This document shows, piece by piece, positions 20,196 through 38,393 of a DNA stretch of 64,000 nucleotides (position 1 is its first letter; every line of letters begins with the position of its first letter). The notes under the pieces were generated by a model that saw nothing but the letters and a program-made list of their open reading frames with translations, ran no database searches and had not been told where the DNA came from. The position numbers were made by a program, and so were the translations under genes. Origin of the DNA: Gammaproteobacteria bacterium 28-57-27 (lineage in GTDB: Bacteria; Pseudomonadota; Gammaproteobacteria; Halothiobacillales; Halothiobacillaceae); the NCBI GenBank assembly GCA_002281735.1, contig NCGK01000019.1, positions 10,777-74,776 on the forward strand, read 5' to 3'.

Positions 20196-20200
20196 ACGTA

Positions 20201-21043: not shown

Positions 21044-21044
21044 C

Positions 21045-22421
21045 TCACACCGCCTTGCGGATGGCGAAGGAGTCGACATATTCCTGCGGCTTGGCCGGGT
21101 CGAACACCTTGCCCATGATGATGTGCTTCTTGAAGTTCTCCGCCGGAGCCTCGATACCCATGTCCTTCAGACGTGCACGCGCTTCGGTGGCAAGGAAAAT
21201 CTGCTCGGCAATCTGCTTGTAGTCGATGTCCTGCTTGATGTAGCCCCAACGCTTGAGCTGGGTAAGAATCCACACACCCATCGACTGCCAGGGGAAGGGA
21301 TCGAAGTCCACGCGCCCCGGCACAGTCAGCACATTGCCCAGACCGTCGGCGAATTTACCGGTCATCACCTGCTGCAATACCGGAATCGGCTGGTTCAGAT
21401 AATTGGCTGGCGCAATGGCCTCGATAATTGCCGCGCGGTTTTCCGCCTTATGCGCATACACCGTGGCGTTGGCGATGGCGCGGAATAGCGCGGAGTAGGT
21501 ATTCGGCGCTTCCTTGATGAACTTGTCGGTGGCGGCAAAGGTGCAACAGGGGTGGCCGTCCCACATATCCTTGGACAGAATCTGGATAAAGCCCACGCCC
21601 TCGAACACCGCACGCTGGTTGAACGGCTCTGGCCCAAGGAAGCCGTCGATATTACCCGCGCGCAGGTTGGCGACCATTTCCGGCGGCGCAATCACGCTGA
21701 TCTGCACATCCGTGTCCGGATTGATGCCATGCTCGGCCAAGTAGTAGCGCAGCAGCAGGTTGTGCATCGAGTAGTCGAACGGAATGCCGAACTTCATGCC
21801 CTTCCAGTTTTTTGGGTCGCGATTGTCCTTGTGCTTGAGCGCCATGGTGATCGCTTGGCCATTGATGTTCTGGATGGTCGCGACCGAAGTCGGGTTGGGT
21901 TGAGCACCCAGCCCCATGCTGGCGGCAATCGGCATGGGAGAGAGCATATGCGAAGCATCGTATTCAGCGCTCAGCACCTTGTCGCGGATCAACGCCCAAC
22001 CGGCGGTCTTGATGACCTCGACATTCAGCCCTTCACGCTCGTAAAAGCCCATCGGCTTGGCCATGATGATCGGCGTGGCGCAGGTGATGGGAATAAAGCC
22101 GACCTTGAGATTGGTCTTCTCCAACGGCCCACCTTCAGCGGCCAGTGCCTGAACTGCGCCCATGGGGAACAGCGCGGATAGCGCAGCCATCGCCGTGCCC
22201 GCGCCGACCGCCTTGAGGAAGGCGCGACGGGTTTCATCATGCGGGAACAGCGCGCGCACCACGGCGGATTCGATCACCCGGTTCAGCGCCGCTTCTTCTT
22301 CCTGCGGCTCGTTCAGGCGCGCCTGCTCGGCATCGTGTTCAGACTGGCTGTTGTGCTTGCCGCAAGAGCAGCCGCCCTTGAGGCGGATGCTGAAATCGAA
22401 CGGGTTTTTGAAGGCGGACAT
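21045..22421 (-). CDS. CmpA/NrtA/CynA-family ABC substrate-binding protein
   Basis: VGFIPITCATP; NINGQAI; YSMHN; WDGHPCC; FDPFPW. Confidence 0.93.
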   Translation of the reverse strand: MSAFKNPFDFSIRLKGGCSCGKHNSQSEHDAEQARLNEPQEEEAALNRVIESAVVRALFPHDETRRAFLKAVGAGTAMAALSALFPMGAVQALAAEGGPLEKTNLKVGFIPITCATPIIMAKPMGFYEREGLNVEVIKTAGWALIRDKVLSAEYDASHMLSPMPIAASMGLGAQPNPTSVATIQNINGQAITMALKHKDNRDPKNWKGMKFGIPFDYSMHNLLLRYYLAEHGINPDTDVQISVIAPPEMVANLRAGNIDGFLGPEPFNQRAVFEGVGFIQILSKDMWDGHPCCTFAATDKFIKEAPNTYSALFRAIANATVYAHKAENRAAIIEAIAPANYLNQPIPVLQQVMTGKFADGLGNVLTVPGRVDFDPFPWQSMGVWILTQLKRWGYIKQDIDYKQIAEQIFLATEARARLKDMGIEAPAENFKKHIIMGKVFDPAKPQEYVDSFAIRKAV

Positions 22422-22463: not shown

Positions 22464-22479
22464 AGCAGTCTTCGTGCCA
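22464..22479 (-). promoter_or_regulatory. sigma54 -24/-12 promoter of the ABC operon
   Basis: Minus strand TGGCACGAAGACTGCT matches TGGCACG-N4-TTGCW. Confidence 0.85.
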
Positions 22480-22622: not shown

Positions 22623-22664
22623 GGACATTGCATTACCAACACCCGCTAATGTCGAACAATGTCC
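22623..22664. promoter_or_regulatory. Candidate activator UAS
   Basis: GGACATTG-N26-CAATGTCC inverted repeat; GTCGAACAATGTCC (22651-22664) recurs exactly at 34397-34410. Confidence 0.65.
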
Positions 22665-22984: not shown

Positions 22985-24568
22985 GTGGCGATCAACGGCA
23001 TCCTGCGCCTGATGTCGCAGATGGTCGGCCTCAATCGCGGGCGGGTGGTACTACCGGATGACAGCGGCCACATGAGCATCCAGTATGCCTACGGCCTGAC
23101 CGCGCTCGAACGCCAGCGCGGCCAGTACGCGCCGGGCGAAGGCGTGACCGGACGGGTTATGCGCACGGGACAAACAGCCGTCATCCAGAACATCGACGAC
23201 GAGCCGCTCTACCTGACCCGCGCCGTCGAGCGCACCACCCTGCCGCAAGAGACCGTGTCGTTCCTGGCCGTGCCGATTCTGCATGACAACGTGCCAATGG
23301 GCGTGCTCGGCGCGCACCGCCTGCGCAAACGCAAGCGCGCCTTCAGCCGCGACGTGACTTTGCTGCGCGTACTGGCCACCTTTATTGCGCAAATCCTGCG
23401 TATGAATGCGTTAATCGAAGAAAAGACCGCACGGCTGGCGGACGAAAACCGCGCACTCAAGCAAGCCCTGGACGATCACACCGAGGGCGCGCATGGCATT
23501 CTGGGCGACAGCCCGGCGCTGAAGCAGGCGCTACGTCAGGCACTGCACGTCGCCCCCACCCAAGCCACCGTACTGCTGAGCGGCGAATCCGGCACCGGCA
23601 AGGAACGCTTCGCACGCATGGTGCATATCAGCAGTGCGCGCTGCGACGGCCCATTTATCGCCATCAACTGCGCCGCCATCCCGGAAAACCTGCTCGAATC
23701 CGAGCTGTTCGGCCATGAAAAAGGCTCGTTCACCGGCGCGGTGGCGTTGAAAAAAGGCGTGGTCGAGCTGGCCAGCGGCGGCACCCTGTTTCTGGATGAA
23801 ATCGGCGATCTGGCCTTCGACCTGCAATCCAAGCTGCTGCATGTTCTGGAGAAGCAACTCATCAAGCGCGTCGGCGGCGTCAAAGATGTCCCGGTGGACG
23901 TGCGCATCATCGCCGCCACCCACAAAAACCTGCAAAAGGCGGTCAACGAGGGGCGCTTCCGCATCGACCTGTTCTACCGCCTCAATGTCTTTCCTATCCA
24001 CCTGCCGCCGCTGCGTGAACGTTCCGGCGATGTGCGCAGCCTGGCGCGGCATTTCCTGCAAGCCGCCAATCAGGAGTTCGACCGCAACACCATGTTCGGC
24101 GCAGGCGTGCTGGAAAGGCTGGAGCACTACAACTGGCCGGGCAACATCCGCCAACTGGAAAACGTGGTTAAACGCGCCGTATTGGTCACCCAGGACGGCC
24201 AAATCAAGCTGGAAGACATCATCCTGATCCTGCGTCACGAGGCGAATATCGGCGAACATCTGGAAGCCGGCATGGCGCTTTCACCCAGCGGGGGAGGCGT
24301 TGCCCTAGCCGCCCCGCCCATGCCCGTCCCGCCCGAAATGCGCGAAACCACCCGCCCCGCCCCGCTCCAACCGGTCAACCTGCGCGGCTACAACTGGGTG
24401 CGCGAAGACGAAGCGCAAGAACTGCTCGACGCGCTCAAACAAGCGCGCGGCAACAAAACCCGCGCGGCGATGGCGCTAGGCATGACCGCACGCCAGTTGA
24501 GGTACCGGATGGTTAAATTGGGGTTGATGGATGGAGGGGAGTCAGAAGCGTCTAACGGGAAAGTCTAA
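22985..24568 (+). CDS. NifA-like sigma54-dependent activator (GAF-AAA-Fis HTH); coding frame extends back to about 22868 with no canonical start
   Basis: GAF region, GESGTGKE, ESELFGHEKGSFTGA, LFLDEIG, WPGNIRQLEN, C-terminal HTH. Confidence 0.92.
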   Translation: MAINGILRLMSQMVGLNRGRVVLPDDSGHMSIQYAYGLTALERQRGQYAPGEGVTGRVMRTGQTAVIQNIDDEPLYLTRAVERTTLPQETVSFLAVPILHDNVPMGVLGAHRLRKRKRAFSRDVTLLRVLATFIAQILRMNALIEEKTARLADENRALKQALDDHTEGAHGILGDSPALKQALRQALHVAPTQATVLLSGESGTGKERFARMVHISSARCDGPFIAINCAAIPENLLESELFGHEKGSFTGAVALKKGVVELASGGTLFLDEIGDLAFDLQSKLLHVLEKQLIKRVGGVKDVPVDVRIIAATHKNLQKAVNEGRFRIDLFYRLNVFPIHLPPLRERSGDVRSLARHFLQAANQEFDRNTMFGAGVLERLEHYNWPGNIRQLENVVKRAVLVTQDGQIKLEDIILILRHEANIGEHLEAGMALSPSGGGVALAAPPMPVPPEMRETTRPAPLQPVNLRGYNWVREDEAQELLDALKQARGNKTRAAMALGMTARQLRYRMVKLGLMDGGESEASNGKV

Positions 24569-25387: not shown

Positions 25388-26356
25388 ATGACTGACGGCA
25401 GAGTTAGAAGCGGAAAGGCAACTTCTGAGGCAATGACGGCAGAGCAAAAAACAGCTAGAGCAAAGGCTGGAGCGGCAAAGAGGGCTGAGCTAGCTGCTAT
25501 TCCTAAGGCCACGCATAAGGGGGAGCTGAAAATTGGAGACTCAATACTTCCTTGCTTTGTTCTTGAGGATGGCCGCCGCGTTCTTTCTGGCCGAGGGTTG
25601 CAAGAATCGCTTAGGCTTGTGGATGACTCAAAATCAGGGGCGAAACTAGATAGATTATTTGAAAATAAGAGCCTAAATCCATTTTTAAAAAATGAGTTAG
25701 GCGCGGCTCATTTTTCGCCAATTATTTGCCTTGCAGACGGGAAAAAAATCAGCGGATATGAAGCTACGATTTTGTCAGATTTGTGTGATGCTGTTCTTGA
25801 GGCAAGAAAAAGTGGTGCAGTAACTACTTCACGGCTAAAGATAGTTGCAGATCAGAGTGAAATGCTAATGCGTGGCTTTGCTCGGGTAGGGTTGATAGCT
25901 TTAGTTGACGAGGCTACTGGTTATCAGGCCGCGCGGGAGAAGGATGCTCTAGCGAAGATTTTAGAAGCTTTTGTAGCGAAAGAACTGCGTCCGTGGATGA
26001 AAACGTTCCCAAACGCATATTACGAAGAAATATTCAGGCTATACAAACTTCCATATCCGCCAGTTAATAATAAAAATTGGAAGCCTTCGTTTATTGGAAC
26101 ACTAACTAATAATGTTGTGTATGAAAGACTGGCTCCAGATATTTTGCCAGAACTAAAAAAAGCGGCTTCAAAAGCCGAGAAGAAGGCAAGGTTACACCAA
26201 TGGCTTACAGATGATATTGGGCATCCAAAACTAAGAGAGCATTTAGCATCAATAGTTACACTATTAAAGCTTTCATCTACACCACAAGATTTTAAAGATA
26301 AAGTTGATAGAATACACCCCGCTTTTGGTCAAACGTATACTATGGATTTTGAATAA
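25388..26356 (+). CDS. P63C domain protein, AT-rich gene
   Basis: CFVLEDGRRVLSGRG; VGLIALVDEATGYQ; FPNAYYEEIFRL; RLHQWLT. Confidence 0.88.
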   Translation: MTDGRVRSGKATSEAMTAEQKTARAKAGAAKRAELAAIPKATHKGELKIGDSILPCFVLEDGRRVLSGRGLQESLRLVDDSKSGAKLDRLFENKSLNPFLKNELGAAHFSPIICLADGKKISGYEATILSDLCDAVLEARKSGAVTTSRLKIVADQSEMLMRGFARVGLIALVDEATGYQAAREKDALAKILEAFVAKELRPWMKTFPNAYYEEIFRLYKLPYPPVNNKNWKPSFIGTLTNNVVYERLAPDILPELKKAASKAEKKARLHQWLTDDIGHPKLREHLASIVTLLKLSSTPQDFKDKVDRIHPAFGQTYTMDFE

Positions 26357-26834: not shown

Positions 26835-28538
26835 ATGAAACTCCGCATTGAGCGCACGCACATTGAAGCGCTGATGGCGGCCTTTCCCCGCTTGGAAAGT
26901 CTGCGCGAACAACTGCGCTTCGGCCATGCGGTCGAGGTGGCTTTCAACGCGCTGGGCGACGATGAGCTCGACTTCCTGCATGATCTGTACGCTGCGGGCG
27001 AGCCGTCGCTCCAGGCGCGCGCCGCGCAGATCGCCACGCTCAGGAACGCATTGCGGCATGAGGGTGTGCGCTTTGAGGCGGAAGACTTGGAGATGCTGGT
27101 GCCGGTCATCGCGCGCTACCTGGTCAGCGAATGCAGCCGTGGCTGGTTGTTCGCCGCCAATGTCACCGGCAAGCTGCTCGCCTATGTGGTGACGCGCATC
27201 GACTACACCCCGCCGGCGGATGAAGAGACCGGCAAGGTCTATCTCGAACTCAAGGCCAATGCCAAGGCCAAGCTGGCTCTTGTCAATCTGCGCATCTCCG
27301 CGCCGGACATTGCGGGTCGCACCGTGGCGGAAATCTTCGCCGCCAAAGGCTTCGTCAAGGAAACGCCGGAACTGCTGCGCCGTTATGACGAGGCGGCGGC
27401 GTGTTATTTCGACTGGCGAGCGCGCTACGGCAAGCAGTTCACGGGTCAGGGGGTGGGCTATTACGCCGAAAACCCCACCGCCACGCACCGCGATACCGAC
27501 TGGTCACGCAAGGACGTGGTGGTGCTCTCTTCCAGCGGTGCACCCGCGCGGCTGGTGAATGATGAAGGCATCCTCGGCGAGCGGGTGCTGGCGCTGGACG
27601 CCACCGGCGAGATTCTGTCCAAATACCTGCGCCGCGTCACCCGTGGCGCGCGTCTGTCCGGCAAAGAGGAGGCCGCGCTGGAAGAAGTGGCCGAAACGAT
27701 TCCAGAGGGCTTGTTCACCGAACTGCCGGTGCATTTTTATATCCTGGTGTTCCACCTCGACCTGCATCATTACCTATGGGTGCATGTGGACGATATGCAG
27801 CCGTATGTCTACCAGCCGGAGCTGAAGCACAAGCTGGTGCTGCCGCCGGAGCAGACCGATCTGATCGACATTCTCACCGCCGAGATGGATGTGCTGATGG
27901 ACGATATCGTCGCGGGTAAGTCCGGCGGCACCACGGTGCTTTGCGCGGGTCCTGCGGGGGTGGGCAAGACGCTGACCGCCGAGGTGTATTCCGAGATTAT
28001 CCAACGACCGCTTTACCGCGTGCATTCCGGCCAGCTCGGGCTGAGCGTCGCCAGCATGGAAACCACGCTCAAGGAGATACTGACCCGCGCCCAGCGCTGG
28101 GGCGCGGTGATGCTGATCGACGAGGCCGATGTCTATATCAAGCGCCGCGAGGACGATCTGACCATGAACGCCGTGGTCGGGGTGTTCCTGCGCGTGCTGG
28201 AATACTTCAACGGCCTGCTGTTCCTCACCACCAACCGCGTGGACGACATTGACGAGGCCATTATTTCGCGCTGCATTGCCATGATCCGCTTCCACCCGCC
28301 GGGACGCGAAGACCGCAAGCGGATCTGGATGGTAATGAGCGAACAATTCGGCCTGACCCTTGCGCCGGAACTCATGGATGCCCTGCCCGACCTATTTCCC
28401 GCCGCCAGTGGACGCGACATCAAGGGGCTGGCAAAACTGGTCGCCAAATACTGCAACCAGAAAGGCGTTCCACCCAGCGAGGAAGTCTTCCGCCGTTGTT
28501 CGGTGTTTCGGGGGATGGATAGTGCGCAGATGGCTTAG
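26835..28538 (+). CDS. AAA+ ATPase with a large uncharacterised N-terminal region
   Basis: GPAGVGKT; MLIDEAD; LRVLEYFNGLLFLTTNR; AIISR. Confidence 0.88.
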   Translation: MKLRIERTHIEALMAAFPRLESLREQLRFGHAVEVAFNALGDDELDFLHDLYAAGEPSLQARAAQIATLRNALRHEGVRFEAEDLEMLVPVIARYLVSECSRGWLFAANVTGKLLAYVVTRIDYTPPADEETGKVYLELKANAKAKLALVNLRISAPDIAGRTVAEIFAAKGFVKETPELLRRYDEAAACYFDWRARYGKQFTGQGVGYYAENPTATHRDTDWSRKDVVVLSSSGAPARLVNDEGILGERVLALDATGEILSKYLRRVTRGARLSGKEEAALEEVAETIPEGLFTELPVHFYILVFHLDLHHYLWVHVDDMQPYVYQPELKHKLVLPPEQTDLIDILTAEMDVLMDDIVAGKSGGTTVLCAGPAGVGKTLTAEVYSEIIQRPLYRVHSGQLGLSVASMETTLKEILTRAQRWGAVMLIDEADVYIKRREDDLTMNAVVGVFLRVLEYFNGLLFLTTNRVDDIDEAIISRCIAMIRFHPPGREDRKRIWMVMSEQFGLTLAPELMDALPDLFPAASGRDIKGLAKLVAKYCNQKGVPPSEEVFRRCSVFRGMDSAQMA

Positions 28539-29412: not shown

Positions 29413-29865
29413 TCAACCGAAGAACGGCCCGGCCACCCCAACCACGCTAATCAACACGCCTAGCCCCAGATTGACCGCCATCACCCGACGGATGGGATTC
29501 ATCACCGCGCCGCCCTCGGACCAGTTTTCGGCGGCCACCGCGCGGCGCAGGCGGGCGAACAGCACGAAGTACAGCCAGGCAAAGATCAGGATCATCAACC
29601 AGCCCACCACCTGCATGGCGATCAGGTAGAGCGGCGTGTTTTGGCCAAAGCGGGCGAGCATATCCAGATAGCCGCTGAGTATCAGCACGGCGATGAATAT
29701 CCACACCCAGGGAAAGAAGCGCGTATAAATGCTGACCCACATGCGTAGTCGGGCAGGCGGCTCCAATTGCGCACTGACCGGGCGCATGACCATGTAGGCG
29801 AAAAAAATGCCACCGATCCAGAACACGGCGGCGAGGGTGTGCAGGGACAGATACAAGGCGGACAT
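29413..29865 (-). CDS. CopD-like four-TM membrane protein
   Basis: LHTLAAVFWIGGIFF; FFPWVWIF; four hydrophobic segments. Confidence 0.75.
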   Translation of the reverse strand: MSALYLSLHTLAAVFWIGGIFFAYMVMRPVSAQLEPPARLRMWVSIYTRFFPWVWIFIAVLILSGYLDMLARFGQNTPLYLIAMQVVGWLMILIFAWLYFVLFARLRRAVAAENWSEGGAVMNPIRRVMAVNLGLGVLISVVGVAGPFFG

Positions 29866-30121: not shown

Positions 30122-30979
30122 TCAGGCTGGGGCGTAAGGCAGACCTGATTCAATGGGCAGCTCAGGATCACGCGACCACTCGTTCCAAGAACCGAAGTAG
30201 AGTTTGACGTTATTGACTCCCGCCGCTTTGAGCGCGACCAAGGTATTGGAAGCGCGCGCGCCTTTGAAGCAGTAGAGGTAGACCGGGGTATCCGAGCCGA
30301 TGCCCACGGTGTGACATTCAGCCAGGATTTCTTCCGGAGCCTTATAAAGCGGGGTCGCGCCCGGCTTCATGAAGCGATACCACTCGATCCAGCGCGCGCC
30401 GGGCAGACGACCCTTGCGCGGGCAGAAGTCTTTGCCATACGGTGAGGAGCTGGTACCGATCCACTCATCAATGTCGCGCACGTCCAGCAGCACCACGTTC
30501 TCATCATCCAGCGCGGCCAGCACTTCGTCCTTGCCGATCAGCAGCTCGGTTCCGGTGTCACGCAGCGGGAATTCGGTACTTGCCGCCTCGGGAACTTCGG
30601 TGGTGACCGGCAGACCGGCGTCCAGCCAGGCGCGGTAGCCGCCATGCAGGATGGAGACTTTCGGATAGCCCAAATAGGCGAGCAGCACATAACCGCGTGT
30701 GGACTGGCCGAAGCCGGTGTTCATCGCCTCCTCGTAGATCACCGCCGTTTCCTTACCGGTCAGCCCGGCCTTGCCGAAGGCCTCGGAGAACTTGGCCTTG
30801 AGCGCCGCCAAGCCTTCCGGGGTGGAGGTGGCGAGGTAGGTGAAGATGTCATGGATGTTCACCGCGCCAGGAATATGCCCGGCGGCATAGGACTCCGGCG
30901 AGCGGGTGTCGATGATGACCGTGGGTTCCTTTTCGGTCAGGGTCAGCAGCTCTGGGACAGATAGTAGAACAGTGCTCAT
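30122..30979 (-). CDS. Tandem-domain rhodanese/sulfurtransferase
   Basis: YAAGHIPGAVN; LDVRDIDEW; GRLPGA; active loop YCFKGARAS; YFGSWNEWS. Confidence 0.92.
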   Translation of the reverse strand: MSTVLLSVPELLTLTEKEPTVIIDTRSPESYAAGHIPGAVNIHDIFTYLATSTPEGLAALKAKFSEAFGKAGLTGKETAVIYEEAMNTGFGQSTRGYVLLAYLGYPKVSILHGGYRAWLDAGLPVTTEVPEAASTEFPLRDTGTELLIGKDEVLAALDDENVVLLDVRDIDEWIGTSSSPYGKDFCPRKGRLPGARWIEWYRFMKPGATPLYKAPEEILAECHTVGIGSDTPVYLYCFKGARASNTLVALKAAGVNNVKLYFGSWNEWSRDPELPIESGLPYAPA

Positions 30980-31029: not shown

Positions 31030-32451
31030 TCAGTTCGCAGCCACTTGGCGGCAGATGGTTTCGTAAAGCTCGGAGGCGCGGGCGGCTTCCGCACCGCTGA
31101 GGGCATAGCCAACCGCTTTGCCGTGGGCGAGGAAGCTCATGCGGCAGGCTGTGCCGTTTTCACTCTCTTGCACCCAGTGTCCCAAGTCGGCCACGCTCAG
31201 GTCGGGTGGGCACAGATTGAGCGCCAGACTCGGCGTTTTGACGCGGATGGCGGTTGGTTTGCACTCAAACAGTGCACTTTCGCCGCAGATTGACGCCGCA
31301 ATCGCTTCAGCCTGACGCTTGATCGGCTCGATGTAAAAATAGCTGCGCCCGTCTACCTCGGCGCAATCGCCCACGACAAAGATATGCGGGTCGCTGCTGC
31401 GCATATCGGCCGGATCGGCATGAATGCCGCGATTAACCAGCAGACCCGCCTTTTTCGCCAGTTCGATATTCGGCACCAGACCCATGGCGGAAATCACCAG
31501 ATCAGTAGCAAGTGTCGCGCCATCGGTCAGGGTGGCGCGATACCCGGCGCAGTCGCTCGCACCGCCGCGCTCCAACGCGGCCAGACTGACACCGGGACGG
31601 AAGTCGATGCCCTGCGGCTTGAGCGCTTGCAGCAAACGCGCGGCCAGCGGCGGCGGCGCAAGACGCCCCAACAACTGCTCGCCCAGATCAAGCAGGGTGA
31701 CGCGATGCCCGCCTGCGTGCAGGTCTTCGGCGAATTCCACGCCAATCAGACCCGCGCCGATCAGGGTGACGTGCTGCGCGCCGCTATCCAGCCGTTCGCG
31801 CATCTTGCGGTAGCTGGCCAGGTCGTTGACGCGCAGGATGTCGTCAGCGGCCCCGCCTTCAAAGGGACGGCGGCGCTGGCTGGCGCCCAAGGCGAGCACC
31901 AGTTGGCCGTATTTCACATTACCCTTGGCGGTCATCAGGCGTTTGTCGGCAGGCTTGATGCCCATCACACGGGTGTTGGCCTGCAAGGTCACGCCCAGTT
32001 CGGCGGCCTTGTCCGTGCCGGATTGTTCCACCAGATCATCCGCGCTGCGCCCCTGACCAATGGCCATGCTCAGCGCGGGTTTGGGATAGACGCAACCATC
32101 ATCGGCGCAGATCAAGGTGATCGCGCGTTCCGGGTCGCGTGCGCGCAGGCGTTCGGCCACCGTCCAGCCTGCAATGCCGCTGCCGACGATGACCACCGCG
32201 TCCTCCCCGCCCACCTGCCCCTTGGCACGCGGCGGACGGTTTTTCGGCGCGGAGGAACCGCCACGCTGGGCGGCATACTCTTCCAAAGTGATGAAGTCGG
32301 CCTTGGTCACCCCGCACAACGGGCACGACCAGTCCTCAGGGATGTCTTCAAAGCGCGTGCCGGGAGCGAGCCCGCTGTCCAGGTCGCCCTTGCTCTCGTC
32401 GTAGATCCATCCGCAGGTCTTGCAGATCCAGCGCGGGGTGCTCATAGCCAT
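31030..32451 (-). CDS. Rubredoxin fused to FAD-dependent NAD(P)H oxidoreductase
   Basis: CKTCGWIYD...WSCPLCG; VIVGSGIAG; LIGAGLIGVEFA; VGDCA. Confidence 0.92.
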   Translation of the reverse strand: MAMSTPRWICKTCGWIYDESKGDLDSGLAPGTRFEDIPEDWSCPLCGVTKADFITLEEYAAQRGGSSAPKNRPPRAKGQVGGEDAVVIVGSGIAGWTVAERLRARDPERAITLICADDGCVYPKPALSMAIGQGRSADDLVEQSGTDKAAELGVTLQANTRVMGIKPADKRLMTAKGNVKYGQLVLALGASQRRRPFEGGAADDILRVNDLASYRKMRERLDSGAQHVTLIGAGLIGVEFAEDLHAGGHRVTLLDLGEQLLGRLAPPPLAARLLQALKPQGIDFRPGVSLAALERGGASDCAGYRATLTDGATLATDLVISAMGLVPNIELAKKAGLLVNRGIHADPADMRSSDPHIFVVGDCAEVDGRSYFYIEPIKRQAEAIAASICGESALFECKPTAIRVKTPSLALNLCPPDLSVADLGHWVQESENGTACRMSFLAHGKAVGYALSGAEAARASELYETICRQVAAN

Positions 32452-32469
32452 TCTCCAGCAATAATCAGA

Positions 32470-33606
32470 TCAAGCCGCCGCCATGGCGTCAATTTCCTTG
32501 CGCAGGTGCTTGGTGGCCGGAGTCACAATGGCCACAAAATAGGCCTCGCGCAATTTGCGCTGCGCCGGGGCGTCGTGCAGATAACCGTTGGCGCCGGTGT
32601 GCAGCATGGCCGAATTGGCCGCTTTGACCACCAGTTCACCGCCCAACAAACGCGCTTCCAGCACGCTGCGGATGTAGTCCGGGTCTTGATTGAACGGCGT
32701 TTCGCACAGTCCAGCGATAGCCTCGCGTGCATCCTCCAGCTCAACACGCAGCTCATCGGGGCGATCATCAAGGTAGCAATTAACATGCCCAAGCTTGGGT
32801 TCCACGTCTTCGCACAACTGGATGCAGCTTTCGATCACCCCGGTCGCCATACCGGTCTGCAACAGGATAAAGCCCGCTTTCATCTTCTTTAGATAAGGAA
32901 TCAGCGGGTCGCCCAACACATGGTTCTTCGGCACGAAGACATCCTTGAACACCAGCGCATAGGTGCCGGTGCCTTCCATGCCGCAGAATTTGGCCAGCTG
33001 TTTGAGCTCCATCCCTTCCCAGGAGGTATTGACCAGAGCCATCACATCGCGCGGGTTGTCGCCGCCGACTTTGAAAATGGAACCGAACCAGTGATCGGGA
33101 CCGAGGTTGGAGATCCACGGCAGGTTGCCGTTAAGGATGAAACCGTCCTCGGTTTCGACGGCAGACACCAGCAACGGCTCAATGCCGGCCAGGTATTTCA
33201 TCGGATTGGAGAGCGCCGTGCCACCGAGTGCTTCGCCGCTGGCCAGTTTGGGCAGCAGGGTTTGCTTGAGATAGTCGTTATTCGACATCTCGACGTACCA
33301 GCACACCACGTCCTGCGCCCACATCATAAAGCCGGTGGACATGCACTCTTGCGAGACAATATCCATCGCCTTCAGTGCGGCCTGCAGGTCGTATTCGCCG
33401 CGCCCGTTCTGCGAGGCGAGGTGCTGACGGAAAGCGCCCGCTTCGCCCAGTGCGCGCAACACCTCGGCAGGGTAATGTCCCTGATCGATCTTCACGGTCA
33501 GCGGGGCGAGTTTGTCGCGCACGATGTCGCGGATCGTATTGAACAGCAGCTCGCCCATGGGGGCAGCGGGCGCGATTTCATTCAGACTAGGTGTTACGGC
33601 GGTCAT
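32470..33606 (-). CDS. Acyl-CoA-dehydrogenase-fold flavoprotein, non-canonical
   Basis: ACAD architecture (GTALSNP; LNGNLPWISN; AMLHTGANGY); IYEGT replaced by IVTPAT. Confidence 0.85.
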   Translation of the reverse strand: MTAVTPSLNEIAPAAPMGELLFNTIRDIVRDKLAPLTVKIDQGHYPAEVLRALGEAGAFRQHLASQNGRGEYDLQAALKAMDIVSQECMSTGFMMWAQDVVCWYVEMSNNDYLKQTLLPKLASGEALGGTALSNPMKYLAGIEPLLVSAVETEDGFILNGNLPWISNLGPDHWFGSIFKVGGDNPRDVMALVNTSWEGMELKQLAKFCGMEGTGTYALVFKDVFVPKNHVLGDPLIPYLKKMKAGFILLQTGMATGVIESCIQLCEDVEPKLGHVNCYLDDRPDELRVELEDAREAIAGLCETPFNQDPDYIRSVLEARLLGGELVVKAANSAMLHTGANGYLHDAPAQRKLREAYFVAIVTPATKHLRKEIDAMAAA

Positions 33607-33664: not shown

Positions 33665-34228
33665 TTACAGCAGGGCGCAGTCGAGAGCGACCGGACGCAT
33701 CATGGTGTTGGCAACCGGCGACCACTTCTTGGCGTGTTGCAGCAGGGCATCCAGGTCTTCCGGGCTGACCGGATCGAGGGTGGCGACGTCAAACTTGACG
33801 CGAATGGCGGTGAAGCCCAGCGGCTTGTCTTCAGCCAAGTCGCCCGTACCCCACACGGCGGTGACGTTGATATCGCCTTCGATCAGCAACTCCAGCTTGG
33901 TCAGCTTGATGCCGCGTGCGGTAGAGTTGGCATGTACACCCACCGCTAGGCAAGCGCCGAGCGCAGCCAGCAGGGCTTCGGACGGGTTCGGCGCGGTGTC
34001 TTCGCCCAGCAGGTGCGGCGGCTCATCCACCACCACCGGCGCCAGTTCGCGGATATAGGTTAGGTTGCGGAACTGGCCTTCGCACACGGTCTTGGCTTTC
34101 AGGGTGACAACAGCGCTCGGATTGGCTTTGCCTTTCTCGCCAAGGGCAGCGAGGCCGCTCGCATCGATTTCGCGCAGGGCTTGACGGATGCAGGACGGGG
34201 CGACAGGTTCTTCAAACTGGGTGCTCAT
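33665..34228 (-). CDS. OsmC/Ohr-fold protein, C-terminal Cys replaced by Ser
   Basis: DEPPHLLGEDTAPNPSEALLAALGACL; WSPVANT. Confidence 0.85.
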   Translation of the reverse strand: MSTQFEEPVAPSCIRQALREIDASGLAALGEKGKANPSAVVTLKAKTVCEGQFRNLTYIRELAPVVVDEPPHLLGEDTAPNPSEALLAALGACLAVGVHANSTARGIKLTKLELLIEGDINVTAVWGTGDLAEDKPLGFTAIRVKFDVATLDPVSPEDLDALLQHAKKWSPVANTMMRPVALDCALL

Positions 34229-34273: not shown

Positions 34274-34309
34274 TGCACAGCCCGTGCCAAGCGGCTCAAC
34301 CCATTGATA
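34274..34309 (-). promoter_or_regulatory. sigma54 promoter plus IHF site of the four-gene redox operon
   Basis: Minus strand TGGCACGGGCTGTGCA (34274-34289); TATCAA-TGGG-TTG (34297-34309). Confidence 0.82.
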
Positions 34310-34355: not shown

Positions 34356-34410
34356 TGACATTGTCGATCTATTTGTCCTTAAATGTCCTTTTTACGGTCG
34401 AACAATGTCC
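34356..34410. promoter_or_regulatory. Candidate activator UAS between divergent promoters
   Basis: GACATTGTC 34357-34365; AAATGTCC 34381-34388; GTCGAACAATGTCC 34397-34410. Confidence 0.65.
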
Positions 34411-34574: not shown

Positions 34575-35018
34575 ATGATGAGCAAAGAAGCCCTGACCGC
34601 CCTGATCCTTGAAAAGAAAGAAACCCTCGGCCTGAGCTGGGAGGCCATCGCCAGCGGCATCGGCCTCTCGCCGGTGTTCACCACCTCCGCCTGTCTGGGC
34701 ATGAACAGCCTCAAGCCGGAGTACGCGCAAAAGCTGGTCACCGTGCTGGAATTACCCGCCGAGGCCAAGGCCGCGACCGAAGCCTGCCCGAGCAAGAGCT
34801 GGGAAAAAGCCGTACCGACCGACCCGCTGATTTATCGCCTGTACGAAATCGTCGGCGTGTACGGCCCGACCATGAAGGCACTGATTCATGAAAAATTCGG
34901 CGACGGCATCATGAGCGCCATCGACTTCTCCATGCACATCGACAAGGAAGAAAACCCACTGGGCGACCGCGTGGTAGTGACCATGAACGGCAAATTCCTG
35001 CCTTACAAATCCTGGTAA
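34575..35018 (+). CDS. cynS: Cyanate hydratase (cyanase)
   Basis: PTDPLIYRLYE; EKFGDGIMSAIDF; GKFLPY; RBS GGAGA before ATG 34575. Confidence 0.97.
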   Translation: MMSKEALTALILEKKETLGLSWEAIASGIGLSPVFTTSACLGMNSLKPEYAQKLVTVLELPAEAKAATEACPSKSWEKAVPTDPLIYRLYEIVGVYGPTMKALIHEKFGDGIMSAIDFSMHIDKEENPLGDRVVVTMNGKFLPYKSW

Positions 35019-35114: not shown

Positions 35115-35429
35115 TTACTTCAGGGTCGCGATATACGCAGCCAGATTGTCGATATCGGCATCGGACAGGCTTGCGGCTTGCGGAGCCATCATCGCGGTGT
35201 TCGCACCGACGGTCTTGCCAGCCTTGTAGTCCTTGAGCAGGGCGGCGGTCTTGTCAGCTGGCTTGCCAGACAGCTTCGGGAAAATACCCATGCCTTCACC
35301 GTTCATGCCGTGGCAGCTTGCGCAGATGGAGCCGAACTTAGCCTTGCCTGCAGCGGCATCGCCCGCAGCAAAAGCACTGCCGCTCATCAGGGCGATAGCG
35401 GCGGAAAGGGCAACAACAATCTTCTTCAT
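35115..35429 (-). CDS. Class I monoheme cytochrome c (c553-like)
   Basis: Signal peptide, CASCH, MMAPQA. Confidence 0.9.
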   Translation of the reverse strand: MKKIVVALSAAIALMSGSAFAAGDAAAGKAKFGSICASCHGMNGEGMGIFPKLSGKPADKTAALLKDYKAGKTVGANTAMMAPQAASLSDADIDNLAAYIATLK

Positions 35430-35764
35430 GGTGACGATCTCCTGGTGGTTTTTTACATACGTAAGCTTGGGTTGGCAATGAGATGTAAAAGTTCAATAAC
35501 CCTTATCCCAAGCCTCAGACCGATGCTAACACAGCCCACGCCCGCCCCAAATACGCCCAACCTCACACCGACTTATTGTTTTATTTGCTACTGGAATAAG
35601 CCGGCTCACGCGATACACCCAAATGACGCGCGGAATACCCCTTGCTCCACTCGCACGCAACCCTCATGACAAGATTTTATAAATACCTAAATCAGTAAAG
35701 TTTATTTATGGGCACTTGAGCTGTTACATTAACCTCACCCCTTCAAGTTAACGGAGCTCACCTC

Positions 35765-36742
35765 ATGACCAACACGCCGCATCAACCCGCCCACGGGCGG
35801 CTTGAACACTTCTCCATTGCCTTCTTCGCCATTGTCATGGGTCTGGCCGGCCTCACCATCGCCGTGGAAAAAGCACAGCATCTGTGGGGCTGGGGAACCA
35901 TGCCCGGACTCACCCTGCTTGCCGTGACCACACTGAGCTATATCGGCATCTCACTGGTCTATCTGATCGAGTTTGCGCGCCATCCAAAGGAAGTTATCGC
36001 CGAATTTAATCACCCCATCCGCATGAGCTTTTTCCCTGCGACATCCATTGGCATGATCCTGATTGCAATCGCCAGCCTGGAGACGTTTCCGGTGGCCGCG
36101 TTCTACCTCTGGGCGATCGGCACGGTGGTGCAGTTAGTATTCACGCTGGTCATTCTTTCCAACTGGGTGCACCACGAAAAATTCCAGATCCAGCACAGCA
36201 ATCCCGCCTGGTTCATTCCTATCGTGGGTACGATCCTGGTGCCCGTCGCGGGCGTGCCGTTGGGCTTTATGGAAATTTCCTGGTTTTTCTTCAGTATCGG
36301 TCTGCTGTTCTGGATCGTCCTGCTGACCATTCTCATGAACCGCTTCTTCTTCCACCCGATGATGCCGGGCAAACTGTTGCCAACCCTGTTCATTCTTATC
36401 GCGCCGCCCGCAGTGGCCTTCATCTCCTGGATCAAGCTGCATAACGGTGTATTGGACGACGCAGGACGCATTTTCTACTACATCGCCCTGTTCACTACCC
36501 TGCTGCTGTTTGCGCAGATGAAATACTTCGTCAAGGTGAAGTTCGCCTTGCCTTGGTGGGCTTATTCCTTCCCCATGGCGGCCATTACCATTTCCAGCAT
36601 GGTCATGCTGGAAATGGTTGGAGGCGTGTTTTTCGCCTCACTGGCACCGCTTTTGCTCACTCTGCTACTCCTACTTATTGTAGTGCTGGTCTTCAACACA
36701 ATTCGCGCTATGCTCCGTGGTGAGATCTGCGTTCCAGAATAA
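35765..36742 (+). CDS. TDT/SLAC1 (TehA-like) anion channel
   Basis: FFAIVMGLAGL; HPIRMSFFPA; NPAWFIPIVG; WWAYSFP. Confidence 0.92.
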   Translation: MTNTPHQPAHGRLEHFSIAFFAIVMGLAGLTIAVEKAQHLWGWGTMPGLTLLAVTTLSYIGISLVYLIEFARHPKEVIAEFNHPIRMSFFPATSIGMILIAIASLETFPVAAFYLWAIGTVVQLVFTLVILSNWVHHEKFQIQHSNPAWFIPIVGTILVPVAGVPLGFMEISWFFFSIGLLFWIVLLTILMNRFFFHPMMPGKLLPTLFILIAPPAVAFISWIKLHNGVLDDAGRIFYYIALFTTLLLFAQMKYFVKVKFALPWWAYSFPMAAITISSMVMLEMVGGVFFASLAPLLLTLLLLLIVVLVFNTIRAMLRGEICVPE

Positions 36743-36849: not shown

Positions 36850-37236
36850 TTGAGCACTCAAAGTATTGTTCATCTACACGGCCTGTTCGTCATCTTGTCA
36901 CTGGTGCTGTTCAGTCTGCGCGGCTATTGGATGCTGCGTGACTGCCCCGCCCTGCAAGCGCGCTGGGTCAAGATCGCCCCGCACATCATTGATACCATGC
37001 TGCTACTGACCGCGCTGTGGGCCGCGTGGTTGCTGTTCTGGAGCCATGGCACGCATCCTGCATTCATTACAGTGAAAATTATCGGGCTAATCATGTACAT
37101 CGTCCTCGGTCTCGTGGCGCTTAAACTCGGTAAAACCAAGGCCATACGCCTCGCCGCGTTCATCGCCGCGCTCAGCGTGTACGTTTATTTGATGGCTGTA
37201 GGTGTCACCATGCGCGTCATTCCCTTTATCAGTTAA
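36850..37236 (+). CDS. SirB2-family membrane protein
   Basis: KIAPHIIDTMLLLT; YIVLGLVALK; TTG start with AAGGAG. Confidence 0.8.
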   Translation: MSTQSIVHLHGLFVILSLVLFSLRGYWMLRDCPALQARWVKIAPHIIDTMLLLTALWAAWLLFWSHGTHPAFITVKIIGLIMYIVLGLVALKLGKTKAIRLAAFIAALSVYVYLMAVGVTMRVIPFIS

Positions 37237-37241
37237 CCCCC

Positions 37242-38393
37242 ATGCAGCACAAACCATCCGCCGCCGACGACGCTGCCACACCGGCTCGCCTGAACTGGCA
37301 GGCGGCGTCTGGTGCGCTGCAAGCGTCTGGCGATTGGAGTGCGCGCAGCTGCGGAGAACTGGCTGAACGCCTAGCCAAAGCACTGGCATCGATTCCGGCT
37401 GGGCAGGAGGGCGTGCGCCTCGATAGCCAGCAGATCACGCACATGGACACAGCGGGCGCGTTGCTGATACTGCAAATTCGCGACGCATTGCAAGCGCGCA
37501 ACATCACGCTCGACCTTTCCGCCTTGCAGACAGGGCAAACCGAGCTGCTTGAACTGGTGCAGCGCATCGGCGACCTGTCCCCTCCCGCCGAACCACCTGG
37601 CCTCAATCCGCTGGAGTCCATCGGCAAGAGCGCACTGGATATCCTGTCTAACGCTTACGACACCATGGTCTTCATCGGAGAAGTGGTCACCCGCACCATC
37701 CCGCTGCTCATCCAACCCTGGCGCCTGCGCTGGGGAGCAATTATCAACGAAATTCAGGCCGCCGGTACGCGCTCAATACCGATTGTCGCCCTACTCACCT
37801 TTCTGATCGGCGTGGTCATCGCCTACCAGTCAGGAATCACCATGCAGCAATACGGCGCCACCGTGTTCCTGCCCGATATGATCGGCATTATCACCCTGCG
37901 CGAAATGGCACCGCTGATCACGGCCATTGTGGTCGCGGGTCGTACAGGATCAAGCTATGCCGCCGCGATTGGCACCATGAAAGTGACCCAGGAAGTCGAT
38001 GCCCTGCGCTCGCTGGCGATTTCACCGATTGAGATGCTGATCATTCCACGCGTTCTGGCGCTGTCCATCGCCCTGCCTTTGCTGACTGTCATGGCCATGG
38101 CGACCGGACTGTACGGCGGCATTCTGGTCGCAAACCAGATCTTTGGGCTGGATATGAGTGTGGCCTTGCAGCGCCTCGGTGCTCTGACGCACTCGCATTT
38201 CTGGGTAGGCATGATCAAGGCACCGATTTTTGCACTCGCCATCGCCATGATCGGCTGTCACGAGGGTATGAAGGTGCGCGGCAGTGCCGCCGATGTTGGG
38301 CGCTCCACCACTGCCAGCGTAGTGCAGGCCATTTTCTGGGTCATCGTCATTGATGCCGTATTTGCCGTCCTGTTCAGCAAACTTAGCCTATGA
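37242..38393 (+). CDS. mlaE: MlaE-family permease with N-terminal STAS domain
   Basis: MDTAGA; LREMAPLITAIVVAGRTGS; EVDALRSL. Confidence 0.9.
   Translation: MQHKPSAADDAATPARLNWQAASGALQASGDWSARSCGELAERLAKALASIPAGQEGVRLDSQQITHMDTAGALLILQIRDALQARNITLDLSALQTGQTELLELVQRIGDLSPPAEPPGLNPLESIGKSALDILSNAYDTMVFIGEVVTRTIPLLIQPWRLRWGAIINEIQAAGTRSIPIVALLTFLIGVVIAYQSGITMQQYGATVFLPDMIGIITLREMAPLITAIVVAGRTGSSYAAAIGTMKVTQEVDALRSLAISPIEMLIIPRVLALSIALPLLTVMAMATGLYGGILVANQIFGLDMSVALQRLGALTHSHFWVGMIKAPIFALAIAMIGCHEGMKVRGSAADVGRSTTASVVQAIFWVIVIDAVFAVLFSKLSL

Follow-up and report, generated by a model that had tools for sequence, protein, structure and literature searches.

The operon, the cyanate genes and their promoters

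The window (the whole stretch of 64,000 nucleotides analysed here, from contig NCGK01000019.1 of Gammaproteobacteria bacterium 28-57-27) carries an operon of four genes on its minus strand (Table 1). In order, these encode a 1-Cys OsmC-like protein, a protein resembling acyl-CoA dehydrogenases (ACAD-like), a fusion of rubredoxin with NADH:rubredoxin reductase, and a rhodanese. The intergenic gaps are 58, 18 and 50 nt, the reductase fusion starting 18 nt past the stop codon of the ACAD-like gene, and no terminator-like site was seen on the minus strand from 34228 down to 28500. The CopD-like gene that follows accompanies the rhodanese gene in Halothiobacillus-type loci. The OsmC-like protein has an invariant Cys93 at the peroxidatic position and, in place of the resolving cysteine, an invariant Ser170 (SPVAN; 7/7 aligned partners). 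It is thus not a two-Cys OsmC/Ohr protein, which would have both a peroxidatic and a resolving cysteine. The second cysteine is also replaced by serine in 23 of the 37 motif-matching OsmC-like partners of distant family members.

Table 1. Positions of the genes and promoter elements in the window.
Feature	Position	Strand	Details
1-Cys OsmC-like protein	33665..34228	-	187 aa; first operon gene
ACAD-fold flavoprotein-like gene	32470..33606	-	378 aa; ORF, Pfam, alignments, AF2, Foldseek
Rubredoxin (CxxC...CxxC) N-terminal + NorW-like NADH:rubredoxin reductase + C-terminal Rbx_binding	31030..32451	-	473 aa
Tandem-domain rhodanese	30122..30979	-	285 aa; active-site loop CFKGARA; thiosulfate sulfurtransferase-like
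Small CopD-like membrane protein	29413..29865	-	150 aa
Sigma54 -24/-12 promoter element TGGCACgggctGTGCA	34274..34289	-	about 45 nt upstream of OsmC-like ATG
Putative activator-binding site GGACATTGTTCGAC	34397..34410	-	
Inverted partner TCGACAATGTC of the putative activator site	34357..34367		
Cyanase cynS	34575..35018	+	NF002773, 201 bits (cut-off 150)
TehA/SLAC1 (TDT family) anion-channel-like gene	35765..36742	+	downstream of cynS
cynF-like activator	22985..24568	+	GAF / sigma54-AAA+ / HTH; NifA-type GAF domain
Identical 14-mer GGACATTGTTCGAC	22651..22664	-	cynA/cynF intergenic region, upstream of the sigma54 element
Second sigma54 element	22464..22479		upstream of cynA
cynABD-like NitT/TauT ABC transporter	19320..22421	-	
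NMT1_2 substrate-binding protein	21045..22421	-	
Transporter permease	20201..21079	-	above NrtB cut-off
Transporter ATPase	19320 to about 20200	-	above NrtCD cut-off

The cyanase gene, whose start was placed at an internal MMSKE, is divergent from the OsmC-like operon, and the cynF-like activator gene is divergent from the transporter operon. The latter layout is that of cynF/cynABDS in Pseudomonas pseudoalcaligenes CECT5344, an established cyanate-assimilation cluster (PMC6627978), where the activator also works with sigma54, its gene is likewise divergent from the ABC transporter genes, a cyanase is included and cynA is preceded by a sigma54 promoter. The CECT5344 cluster lacks the OsmC-like/ACAD-like/reductase module, however, and in the window this module forms an extra sigma54 operon within the cluster. 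The TehA/SLAC1-like gene is tentatively linked to the same system; a TDT/SLAC1 anion-channel domain is fused to one distant member of the ACAD-like family. An ORF at 35178..35669 (163 aa) is probably not a gene, having no family match and a low-complexity translation.

The sigma54 element upstream of the OsmC-like gene was found in 54/76 loci, against 0.02 expected per region. The 14-mer GGACATTGTTCGAC is common to both intergenic regions of the window, that of the OsmC-like operon and that between cynA and cynF. A related motif stands upstream of the OsmC-like gene in 36/76 loci (background 0.04) and is kept less well upstream of cynA elsewhere (6/62 loci). From these sequences the OsmC-like operon would appear to belong to one regulon with the cynABD-like transporter and the cyanase, co-regulated by the cynF-like activator.

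The same genes recur together in related organisms. Neighbourhoods were counted in 46 species-level genomes of sulfur-oxidising Gammaproteobacteria with at least 8 kb on each side, and the ACAD-like gene was accompanied by the rubredoxin reductase in all 46, the OsmC-like gene in 44, a cynF-like gene in 44 and cyanase in 42. A cynA-like gene was present in 40 of these genomes, DUF302 in 19 and a rhodanese in 16.

The NorW-like reductase, the OsmC family of the first gene and a GAF-sigma54 activator resembling NorR together could suggest an NADH-driven chain against peroxide or nitrosative stress, running through rubredoxin and the flavoprotein to an OsmC-like peroxidase and merely adjoining the cyn genes. 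The likeness to the E. coli NorVW/NorR system extends to the rubredoxin domain. However, the scores fall below the model cut-offs (NorW 261 bits, cut-off 392; NorR 323 bits, cut-off 476), the activator is better described as NifA-type (455 bits over the full length) and is placed like cynF, no flavodiiron protein is encoded, and it is the reductase, not the acceptor, that carries the rubredoxin. The linkage to cyanase and transporter survives shuffled gene orders, 26-49% identity and lineages without the reductase, and the 14-mer joins the operon to the cynA promoter region. A stress chain is thus very unlikely.

The ACAD-like protein and its missing glutamates

The strings GGTALSNPMKY, KKMKAGFILLQTG and REAYFVAIVTPATKHLRKE all lie within the 378-residue translation of the ACAD-like gene. 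Pfam matched all three ACAD domains, only the N-terminal one above its gathering score (49.2 bits, cut-off 22.9; M domain 22.2, cut-off 33.3; C domain 21.0, cut-off 22.4). Structure prediction bore out the fold originally proposed: the AF2 model (mean pLDDT 91.2, pTM 0.90) has an ACAD fold, and Foldseek against the PDB returned short-chain and butyryl-CoA dehydrogenases as top matches (TM 0.80-0.85, identity 20-22%), with TM 0.82 to SCAD. With SCAD and the butyryl- and isovaleryl-CoA dehydrogenases (human SCAD, 2vig; Tfu_1647, 7w0j) the protein shares, besides the three-domain fold, the GxxGY motif, the R-E-A segment before the catalytic loop and residues S133, W164 and S166, which we take to be the Trp and Ser residues flanking the flavin ring in ACADs. 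These three residues and GxxGY are kept throughout the family in the homologue alignment. It differs from those enzymes in having Thr-Pro in the catalytic loop, no helix-G Glu and a C-terminal KHLRKE tail of its own, as well as in its low identity and in the lack of an ETF or beta-oxidation context.

That both catalytic Glu positions are vacant, first claimed from alignment by eye, was confirmed by phmmer and extends to the whole family. Against the ACADs of the PDB, 'vaivtpat' of the query stands opposite 'tqiye-gt' of 7w0j/8i4p, which puts Thr362 opposite the catalytic Glu and Thr362-Pro363 at the place of the ACAD Glu-Gly. Aligned to the IVD-type enzyme 4o5m, the query has a gap, between F246-I247-L248 and L249-Q250, where the helix-G Glu ('ldyERvv') stands. 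Family-profile alignments to human and rat SCAD end at 'REAYF', directly before the Glu-bearing segment, so this segment is replaced in the ACAD-like family. The reading of ALSNP for ALSEP as a further loss was half right: Asn134 does replace the signature Glu (TEPxxGSD becoming SNPMKY), but that Glu is part of the ACAD signature motif and not a catalytic base. The RxxFG-type Arg, which in ACADs binds the FAD pyrophosphate of the neighbouring subunit, and the GSD loop are seemingly not conserved in the alignment to PDB ACADs.

Across 35 homologues (52-94% identity), T362, P363, N134, G245, Q250 and the KHLRKE tail do not vary. VTP was found in 115/119 near-full-length close homologues, and TP in 64 of 67 distant metagenomic homologues; [YF]EG occurs in none of these 67. 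With such invariance the Thr-Pro substitution is not a chance event. Halothiobacillus neapolitanus c2 has an ortholog (WP_012825059.1 / ACX97027.1), which falls in a 90% cluster whose representative shares 88% identity with the protein of the window. The family comprises at least 133 clusters at 50% identity (E<=1e-30), and by its sequence the protein is a member of a large, old branch of the ACAD superfamily with Thr-Pro for Glu-Gly. NCBIfam has no model of this Thr-Pro family, its structure has not been solved for any member, and no characterised relative was found in NCBIfam or the PDB for the protein of the window or for distant members.

The close loci were taken as the best 80 of 258 matching stretches. 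Their hosts are overwhelmingly labelled as sulfur-oxidising or unclassified Gammaproteobacteria, mostly chemolithoautotrophic sulfur oxidisers; two are labelled otherwise, and these are probably binning errors. Chromatiaceae and Thiohalocapsa, phototrophic purple sulfur bacteria whose growth is often anaerobic, also carry the module among these 80. In metatranscriptomes, words from the locus reached 14% in one set only (an ice metagenome).

In databases the protein is named acyl-CoA/acyl-ACP dehydrogenase. A genuine dehydrogenase of acyl-CoA or an acyl carrier, using another catalytic base, would account for the ACAD fold and for top matches to SCAD and IVD. Against this, Glu is found at neither position across the family, the Pfam M and C domains are under threshold, the hosts are largely obligate autotrophs, and no beta-oxidation, ETF, CoA-ligase or carrier-protein genes lie near the ACAD-like gene, the 46 well-flanked loci being without beta-oxidation or ETF genes within 10 kb in every case. 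A genuine dehydrogenase is hardly conceivable on these results: the gene product is not an acyl-CoA dehydrogenase. The original prediction of a different chemistry is well supported, because the catalytic Glu is absent family-wide, the hosts are sulfur oxidisers and the neighbours are cyanate and rhodanese genes and not those of beta-oxidation or ETF.

The ACAD fold without catalytic Glu is also that of the two-component flavin monooxygenases of group D (DszC, SfnB/MsuC, HsaA and HpaH C2). These act on non-CoA substrates, often sulfur compounds, and are supplied with reducing power by a second, NAD(P)H-dependent protein, which is not always encoded in the same cluster. The suggestion of a DszC-like monooxygenase is plausible as far as the fold without a catalytic base goes, but in both sequence and predicted fold DszC, SfnB and HsaA are more remote than the true short-chain ACADs, and a rubredoxin with its reductase takes the place of a flavin reductase as partner. 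The protein also differs in having an obligatory Cys-protein partner, and oxygenase activity on the ACAD-like side is putative. In the NCBIfam search the protein of the window gave 30.4 bits with HsaA (cut-off 450), 19 bits with the HpaH oxygenase (cut-off 650) and no match to the DszC and SfnB models. The 3-sulfinopropionyl-CoA desulfinase AcdDPN7 is another enzyme with the ACAD fold and no catalytic Glu, and it cleaves a C-S bond; its model matched only partially (37 bits, cut-off 600), and it acts on a CoA thioester whereas the ACAD-like protein has no CoA-activating enzyme nearby.

Distant members of the family

At 26-49% identity, distant members of the family preserve this association although the order of the genes is shuffled. 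Layouts include a TetR gene beside ABC transporter, OsmC-like and ACAD-like genes; AhpD-like, ACAD-like and ABC transporter genes; and OsmC-like, cyanase and ACAD-like genes. Still present are a partner protein that bears a Cys and an ABC transporter of the NitT/TauT family, and cyanase and rhodanese are recurrent. The 80 metagenome loci contain at least 37 substrate-binding proteins, 37 OsmC-like proteins, 19 SCO4226-like proteins (CLC motif), 15 rhodaneses and 14 cyanases; genes were called crudely as the longest ORFs and spurious antisense ORFs displaced some real genes in GC-rich loci, so these counts are lower bounds. Twelve of the 15 adjoining rhodaneses have the CFKGAR loop of the rhodanese in the window. 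In one locus a [2Fe-2S] ferredoxin gene lies between the ACAD-like gene and the rhodanese, and in two cases the neighbour is a Nit1C nitrilase/radical-SAM cluster, a cluster linked to cyanide assimilation. The rubredoxin reductase occurs in 5/80 loci and is missing from most members outside the sulfur oxidisers, which means that this electron supply is not a conserved feature. Neither cyanase nor rhodanese was found within 5 kb in 11 of 21 well-flanked distant loci, and operons of the HxlR/SCO4226 type are without both.

Some distant members bear on a monooxygenase of the DszC/SfnB kind acting on an organosulfur or organonitrogen compound (e.g. a sulfonate, a sulfinate or an organic thiocyanate) brought in by TauT-like import. 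One adjoins a luciferase-like monooxygenase and a TonB receptor, others match the SfnB and DszC models weakly (31-42 bits), and the transporter is of the NitT/TauT family. Those scores are far below the cut-offs, however; autotrophs that oxidise sulfur amid inorganic sulfur have little need of scavenging it, the regulation is of the sigma54/cyanate type, and the recurrent link to cyanase would be unexplained. Such an organosulfur or organonitrogen monooxygenase is a doubtful candidate.

A possible thiocyanate-to-cyanate system

Rhodanese makes or handles S-CN and cyanase consumes OCN-, which makes an enzyme encoded between them a natural candidate for the conversion of SCN- to OCN-. Hydrolysis of SCN- to OCN- and HS- would cost about +19 kJ/mol by our own estimate from tabulated free energies, a cost that would account for a redox enzyme being required. 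With these neighbours in mind, we tentatively propose that the ACAD-like protein carries out the redox step, probably as an oxygenase, in a cytoplasmic system converting thiocyanate to cyanate, a reading with a reasonable chance of being right but short of an even one. In such a system the ABC transporter would bring in thiocyanate, and electrons would pass from NADH to the FAD of the reductase, the rubredoxin iron and the flavin of the ACAD-like protein. The reduced flavin and O2 would then oxygenate the sulfur of SCN-, and at the conserved Cys of the OsmC-like protein the activated S-C bond would be resolved to give cyanate and a protein persulfide. Rhodanese would take off the persulfide sulfur, and cyanase would convert the cyanate to NH3 and CO2. 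From the genes present we infer how the electrons travel, what the substrate is and how the sulfur is passed on. The ACAD-like enzyme had been put, as a probability, at the committed step of a pathway. No biosynthetic cluster exists in the window, the surroundings being housekeeping (trpE, trpD, trpC, rpe, Mla, glycosyltransferases), and in a modified sense the step would be the cyanate-producing entry to cyanate nitrogen assimilation.

Several results speak against parts of this proposal. Cyanate may be the sole cargo of the transporter. The distant loci without cyanase and rhodanese, and the scarcity of the reductase outside the sulfur oxidisers, count against it, as does the apparent loss of the Arg that contacts FAD in ACADs. 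By sequence and model the protein lies closer to dehydrogenase-type ACADs than to the known oxygenases with this fold, and an O2-dependent step is awkward given that Chromatiaceae and Thiohalocapsa carry the module.

An alternative is a dehydrogenase or oxidase for thiocyanate or another small S/N anion, in which the substrate gives two electrons to the flavin and its sulfur goes to the Cys partner. The flavin would be re-oxidised by O2, with the H2O2 removed by the OsmC/AhpD-like peroxidase, or by rubredoxin or ferredoxin. The nearest relatives in sequence and fold are dehydrogenases, the partners come from peroxidase families, the reductase is absent in most lineages, and an E0' of about -0.17 V for (OCN- + S0)/SCN-, again our own estimate from tabulated free energies, is within the reach of a flavin. 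Set against this are the normal direction of electrons in NorW-type reductases, from NADH to rubredoxin and not the reverse, and the lack of a resolving Cys in the OsmC-like partner, which is unusual for a dedicated peroxidase. We regard a dehydrogenase or oxidase of this kind as unlikely.

The links to cyanase, rhodanese and Nit1C would be served equally well by a cyanide monooxygenase, whose flavin hydroperoxide would oxygenate CN- to cyanate for cyanase, with rhodanese drawing off cyanide in parallel and peroxide from uncoupled turnover cleared by the OsmC-like protein. An oxygenase converting cyanide to cyanate has been reported physiologically, to our knowledge without an assigned gene, and H2O2 turns cyanide into cyanate chemically (as in the treatment described in PMC6627978). 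HCN permeates membranes, however, which leaves the tightly linked ABC importer unexplained, as are the constant company of three unrelated Cys proteins (OsmC-like, AhpD-like and SCO4226-like) and the strong confinement of the clade to sulfur oxidisers. Cyanide as the substrate is accordingly improbable.

Should thiocyanate be the substrate, as we prefer, the pathway would be a cytoplasmic, nitrogen-assimilatory 'cyanate pathway', apart from thiocyanate hydrolase (ScnABC), a cobalt enzyme of the nitrile-hydratase family, and from thiocyanate dehydrogenase (TcDH), a periplasmic copper enzyme. The substrate would be that of both enzymes and the products, cyanate and zero-valent sulfur, those of TcDH; fold and cofactor are unrelated to those of the ACAD-like protein. 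The proposed system would be NADH-linked in the cytoplasm where TcDH is cytochrome c-linked in the periplasm, and regulated for nitrogen assimilation where ScnABC and TcDH serve energy. A transporter of the NitT/TauT type is also encoded in ScnABC clusters, one of which has a cyanase gene as well (PMC5328954). The full-text literature searched yielded no description of the OsmC-like/ACAD-like/reductase module and no paper combining thiocyanate, cyanase and acyl-CoA dehydrogenase.

Gold-mining and coking effluents contain thiocyanate as a major pollutant, and in sulfidic habitats it is the natural cyanide sink. We know of no enzyme assigned in many of the bacteria that use it as a nitrogen source. 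Only two thiocyanate-degrading enzymes are known (PMC5328954). The idea of a 'cyanate pathway', based on cyanase activity, dates back to 1954 (cited in PMC5328954 and PMC6504805). A module lying between rhodanese and cyanase would fill this gap, and its gene would serve as a marker in metagenomic surveys and in bioremediation. There is a fair chance, though less than an even one, that the OsmC-like/ACAD-like pair, fed in the window by the rubredoxin reductase, is a third, previously unrecognised system of thiocyanate breakdown, a cytoplasmic flavin-dependent desulfurase/oxygenase yielding cyanate and persulfide. If so, it would be widespread in sulfur oxidisers and many other bacteria, given the number of clusters in the family, and would explain how bacteria without ScnABC and TcDH obtain nitrogen from thiocyanate and, via rhodanese, from cyanide too. 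Such a system would represent a new reaction type for the ACAD superfamily with a new mode of electron supply, the first enzyme of this fold whose flavin receives electrons from rubredoxin. Even if the substrate is wrong, hundreds of genomes list members of a large and conserved family under the mistaken name 'acyl-CoA dehydrogenase', and what this family does is clearly something different.

Sequence and predicted fold of the ACAD-like protein

The original prediction was that this protein has the fold of the acyl-CoA dehydrogenases (ACADs) but no catalytic Glu at either of the positions used by them. The three strings quoted in its support are all present in the translation of the reading frame, and the loss is real and not the accident of a single sequence. 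Comparison with PDB sequences using phmmer gave matches to ordinary ACADs (E ∼1e-21) in which their 'tqiye-gt' lies opposite 'vaivtpat', placing the catalytic Glu opposite Thr362, and the helix-G Glu of an IVD-type enzyme falls opposite a gap between KAGFIL and LQTG. When the family profile was used, the alignments of human and rat SCAD stopped at 'REAYF', directly before the Glu-bearing loop. The substitutions are fixed in homologues: T362, P363, N134, G245 and Q250 are invariant in a 35-sequence alignment, as are C88, H62, H172, H336, H367, W164, S133, S166 and the tail KHLRKE, and VTP is found in 115 of 119 near-full-length close homologues. The Glu of 'ALSEP' is a signature residue and no base.

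The AF2 model, made with 35 homologues as input, had a pLDDT of 91.2 and a pTM of 0.90, and its top PDB matches in Foldseek were short-chain/butyryl-CoA dehydrogenases (TM 0.80–0.85, 20–22% identity). Judged by this predicted structure the protein is a member of the ACAD superfamily. However, the catalytic Glu is absent, the gene context is not that of an ACAD and, while Pfam recognised all three ACAD domains, only the N-terminal domain passed its gathering score, the M and C domains falling below theirs. No NCBIfam model came near its cut-off, the best giving 64 bits against 470. In the phmmer alignment to PDB ACADs the RxxFG Arg, which in those enzymes binds the FAD pyrophosphate, is apparently lost, thus the cofactor is uncertain. 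The protein also fell outside each of the characterised ACAD-fold oxygenase and desulfinase families by sequence. It may work like the DszC-type enzymes, but its partners (a rubredoxin reductase and a Cys protein) and its regulon differ from theirs.

Operon structure and regulation

The ACAD-like gene lies in a tight string of minus-strand genes, and no terminator-like site was found on that strand from 34228 to 28500. The permease and ATPase of the nearby transporter pass the NrtB and NrtCD cut-offs. The cynF/cynABD/cynS layout is the one characterised genetically in Pseudomonas pseudoalcaligenes, where cyanate induces the cluster, ammonium represses it and the sigma54 activator CynF is required (PMC6627978). 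In the window the cyn cluster is split by the P63C-domain and AAA ATPase genes, which separate the cynF-like gene from the rhodanese end of the operon. As the two parts so separated are only 2–6 kb apart in related genomes, the segment between them looks inserted and is possibly phage- or defence-related.

Features of the window (positions, strand where assigned, and remarks)
Feature	Position	Strand	Remarks
HdrD/GlpC-like protein	4665..5966	plus	two 4Fe-4S motifs, two CCG cysteine-rich domains; near trp and rpe genes
Nitrate/cyanate-type ABC transporter	19320..22421		divergent from cynF-like gene
NifA-type GAF-sigma54 activator (cynF-like)	22985..24568		∼10 kb away
P63C-domain protein	25388..26356	plus	between cynF-like gene and rhodanese end of operon
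AAA ATPase	26835..28538	plus	between cynF-like gene and rhodanese end of operon
Small CopD-like membrane protein	29413..29865	minus	in the tight string
Tandem rhodanese	30122..30979	minus	in the tight string; active-site loop CFKGARA
Rubredoxin fused to NorW-like NADH:rubredoxin reductase	31030..32451	minus	Rbx_binding domain; 18 nt downstream of ACAD-like gene
Rejected ORF	31384..32892	plus	502 aa; antisense to rubredoxin reductase and ACAD-like genes
ACAD-like protein	32470..33606	minus	378 aa
OsmC-like protein	33665..34228	minus	in tight string with ACAD-like gene
Cyanase	∼34575..35018		divergent from OsmC-like gene
TehA/SLAC1-type protein	35765..36742		downstream of cyanase
sigma54-type element TGGCACGCATCCTGCA	37032..37047	plus	∼195 nt upstream of STAS-MlaE gene
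STAS-MlaE protein of Mla-like ABC system	37242..38393		downstream of TGGCACGCATCCTGCA

A near-consensus sigma54 element, TGGCACgggctGTGCA, was found ∼45 nt before the start codon of the OsmC-like gene and another upstream of the cynA-like gene. Both intergenic regions contain the identical 14-mer GGACATTGTTCGAC, each copy with an inverted partial copy close by and a shared 10-mer ∼72 nt further on. Of 76 related loci, 54 have a sigma54 element before the OsmC-like gene (0.02 expected per region) and 36 have a GACATTGTCCGA-like motif there (background 0.04); this motif was found upstream of cynA in only 6 of 62. We infer that the cynF-like activator would drive both operons.

The element before the STAS-MlaE gene is also a good one. 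The HdrD/GlpC-like protein could be relevant to the sulfur or glycolate metabolism of this autotroph. The antisense ORF has no family support and was rejected as the usual artefact of GC-rich coding sequence.

Distribution and gene context of the family

The closest relatives of the ACAD-like protein are from Halothiobacillus, Guyparkeria, Thiomicrorhabdus, Hydrogenovibrio and Thiohalorhabdus. The protein of H. neapolitanus c2 falls in a 90% cluster represented by a sequence that shares 88% identity with the window protein. When one genome per species was scanned, 258 stretches encoding a relative were obtained, and the labels of the best 80 are overwhelmingly sulfur-oxidising or unclassified Gammaproteobacteria. 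The two labelled otherwise are a contig of 1146 nt from a 'Treponema denticola' bin (DYPP01000240.1), 93% identical to the Halothiobacillus-type gene, and a 'Thalassolituus' MAG contig (DCCG01000030.1) that carries the complete module of the sulfur-oxidiser type at 76% identity. Both labels probably reflect binning errors in public MAGs.

Of the genome loci, 46 have at least 8 kb on both sides. Within 10 kb of the ACAD-like gene the rubredoxin reductase was present in all 46, the OsmC-like and cynF-like genes each in 44, cyanase in 42, the cynA-like gene in 40, DUF302 in 19 and rhodanese in 16. The DUF302 gene (∼130 aa) lies between the ACAD-like and reductase genes (e.g. L003, L004 and L006) in every lineage except Halothiobacillaceae and Thiomicrorhabdus; sox clusters of Acidithiobacillia also contain DUF302 genes (PMC5037610). 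At one Guyparkeria locus (L001:505-4411) the cyanase side is flanked by genes for an alpha-carbonic anhydrase and a pump for inorganic carbon of the DabA/DabB type, in keeping with the need of cyanase for bicarbonate. The Cys at the peroxidatic position (Cys93) is retained in the OsmC-like partners, which have an invariant Ser in place of the resolving Cys.

Exhaustive searching of 1.84 billion cluster representatives with HMMER gave 133 clusters at E<=1e-30, with identity declining smoothly from 49% to 26% and '...F.A[IV][VL]TP...' kept in every full-length family sequence read. No family member was found in NCBIfam or the PDB. Distant contexts include a TetR-controlled operon of ABC transporter, OsmC-like and ACAD-like genes; AhpD/CMD-like, ACAD-like and ABC transporter genes adjoining a luciferase-like oxygenase; and OsmC-like, cyanase and ACAD-like genes consecutively. 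In one 681-aa protein (P0297, L090:7001-9046) a ten-helix TDT/SLAC1 (TehA-like) membrane domain, only 19% identical to the TehA/SLAC1-like protein of the window, is fused to an ACAD-like domain, a Rosetta-stone hint of a small anion as the substrate of the enzyme.

A metagenome scan that started from a distant sub-group gave 80 loci, whose same-strand neighbours were assigned by crude ORF clustering: NMT1_2 substrate-binding protein and OsmC-like protein (37 each), permease (33), ATPase (31), TetR (29), a SCO4226-like protein with a CLC motif occupying the OsmC-like position (19), rhodanese with the same CFKGAR loop (15), cyanase (14), HxlR (9) and rubredoxin reductase (5). Of these, 21 loci extend for at least 4 kb to either side; a Cys partner was found in 18 of them, the substrate-binding protein in 14, cyanase in 7, rhodanese in 6 and one or other of the last two in 10. 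Some distant loci read OsmC-like, ACAD-like, substrate-binding protein, permease, ATPase, cyanase and others cyanase, OsmC-like, rhodanese, ACAD-like; such varied orders argue that the linkage is functional rather than historical. Between the ACAD-like gene and rhodanese of L144 lies an adrenodoxin/ISC-type [2Fe-2S] ferredoxin gene (9098-9400, plus strand), which in this lineage would serve as one-electron carrier in place of the rubredoxin found in the sulfur oxidisers. At L165 and L176 a Nit6803-family nitrilase (TIGR04048, 567 bits) and an MSMEG_0568 radical-SAM protein (TIGR04043, 596 bits) are encoded upstream of, and adjoining, the OsmC-like/ACAD-like pair. Both belong to the core of the Nit1C cluster, which is linked to cyanide assimilation.

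A possible role in thiocyanate assimilation

The constant core comprises the ACAD-like protein, an ABC importer of the NitT/TauT family and a small reactive-Cys protein, whose slot is filled by three unrelated folds. The recurrent accessories are cyanase, rhodanese and an electron chain of the iron-sulfur or rubredoxin type. We are fairly confident of the joint claim that the protein is no ACAD, that it is part of a cyanate/thiocyanate/cyanide nitrogen regulon and that the Cys protein and rubredoxin reductase are its partners in function.

Given that rhodanese makes or handles S-CN and cyanase uses OCN-, the obvious intermediate step still unassigned is SCN- to OCN-. From tabulated free energies, hydrolysis of SCN- to cyanate and sulfide is estimated at ∼+19 kJ/mol and the (OCN- + S0)/SCN- couple at near -0.17 V, so the step needs redox help of a kind that a flavoprotein can give. 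Our tentative proposal, which may well prove wrong, is that the ACAD-like protein would be an oxygenase attacking the thiocyanate sulfur, which would be handed to the Cys partner as a persulfide and removed by rhodanese, with cyanase completing assimilation. The rivals are a dehydrogenase or oxidase version of the same reaction, a monooxygenase acting directly on cyanide, a DszC/SfnB-like organosulfur oxygenase, a stress-defence chain and a true ACAD. Foldseek places the protein closer to dehydrogenases than to known oxygenases, and the module also occurs in Chromatiaceae and Thiohalocapsa, purple sulfur phototrophs often living without O2; both count against an oxygenase. An oxygenase is favoured by the normal direction of NorW-type reductases, from NADH to rubredoxin, and by the fact that most lineages can dispense with the reductase gene, as is the case for two-component flavin monooxygenases.

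Other observations count against the thiocyanate proposal, the apparent loss of the RxxFG Arg among them. Two module-bearing Guyparkeria species reportedly do not oxidise thiocyanate as an energy source, though its use as a nitrogen source may be different; strain SCN-R1 has thiocyanate dehydrogenase (TcDH) and its extracts showed no detectable cyanase activity; and about half of the well-flanked distant loci are without both cyanase and rhodanese. Full-text literature searches turned up no account of the module. Should the thiocyanate hypothesis prove right, its pathway would be categorically new with respect to both thiocyanate hydrolase (ScnABC) and TcDH.
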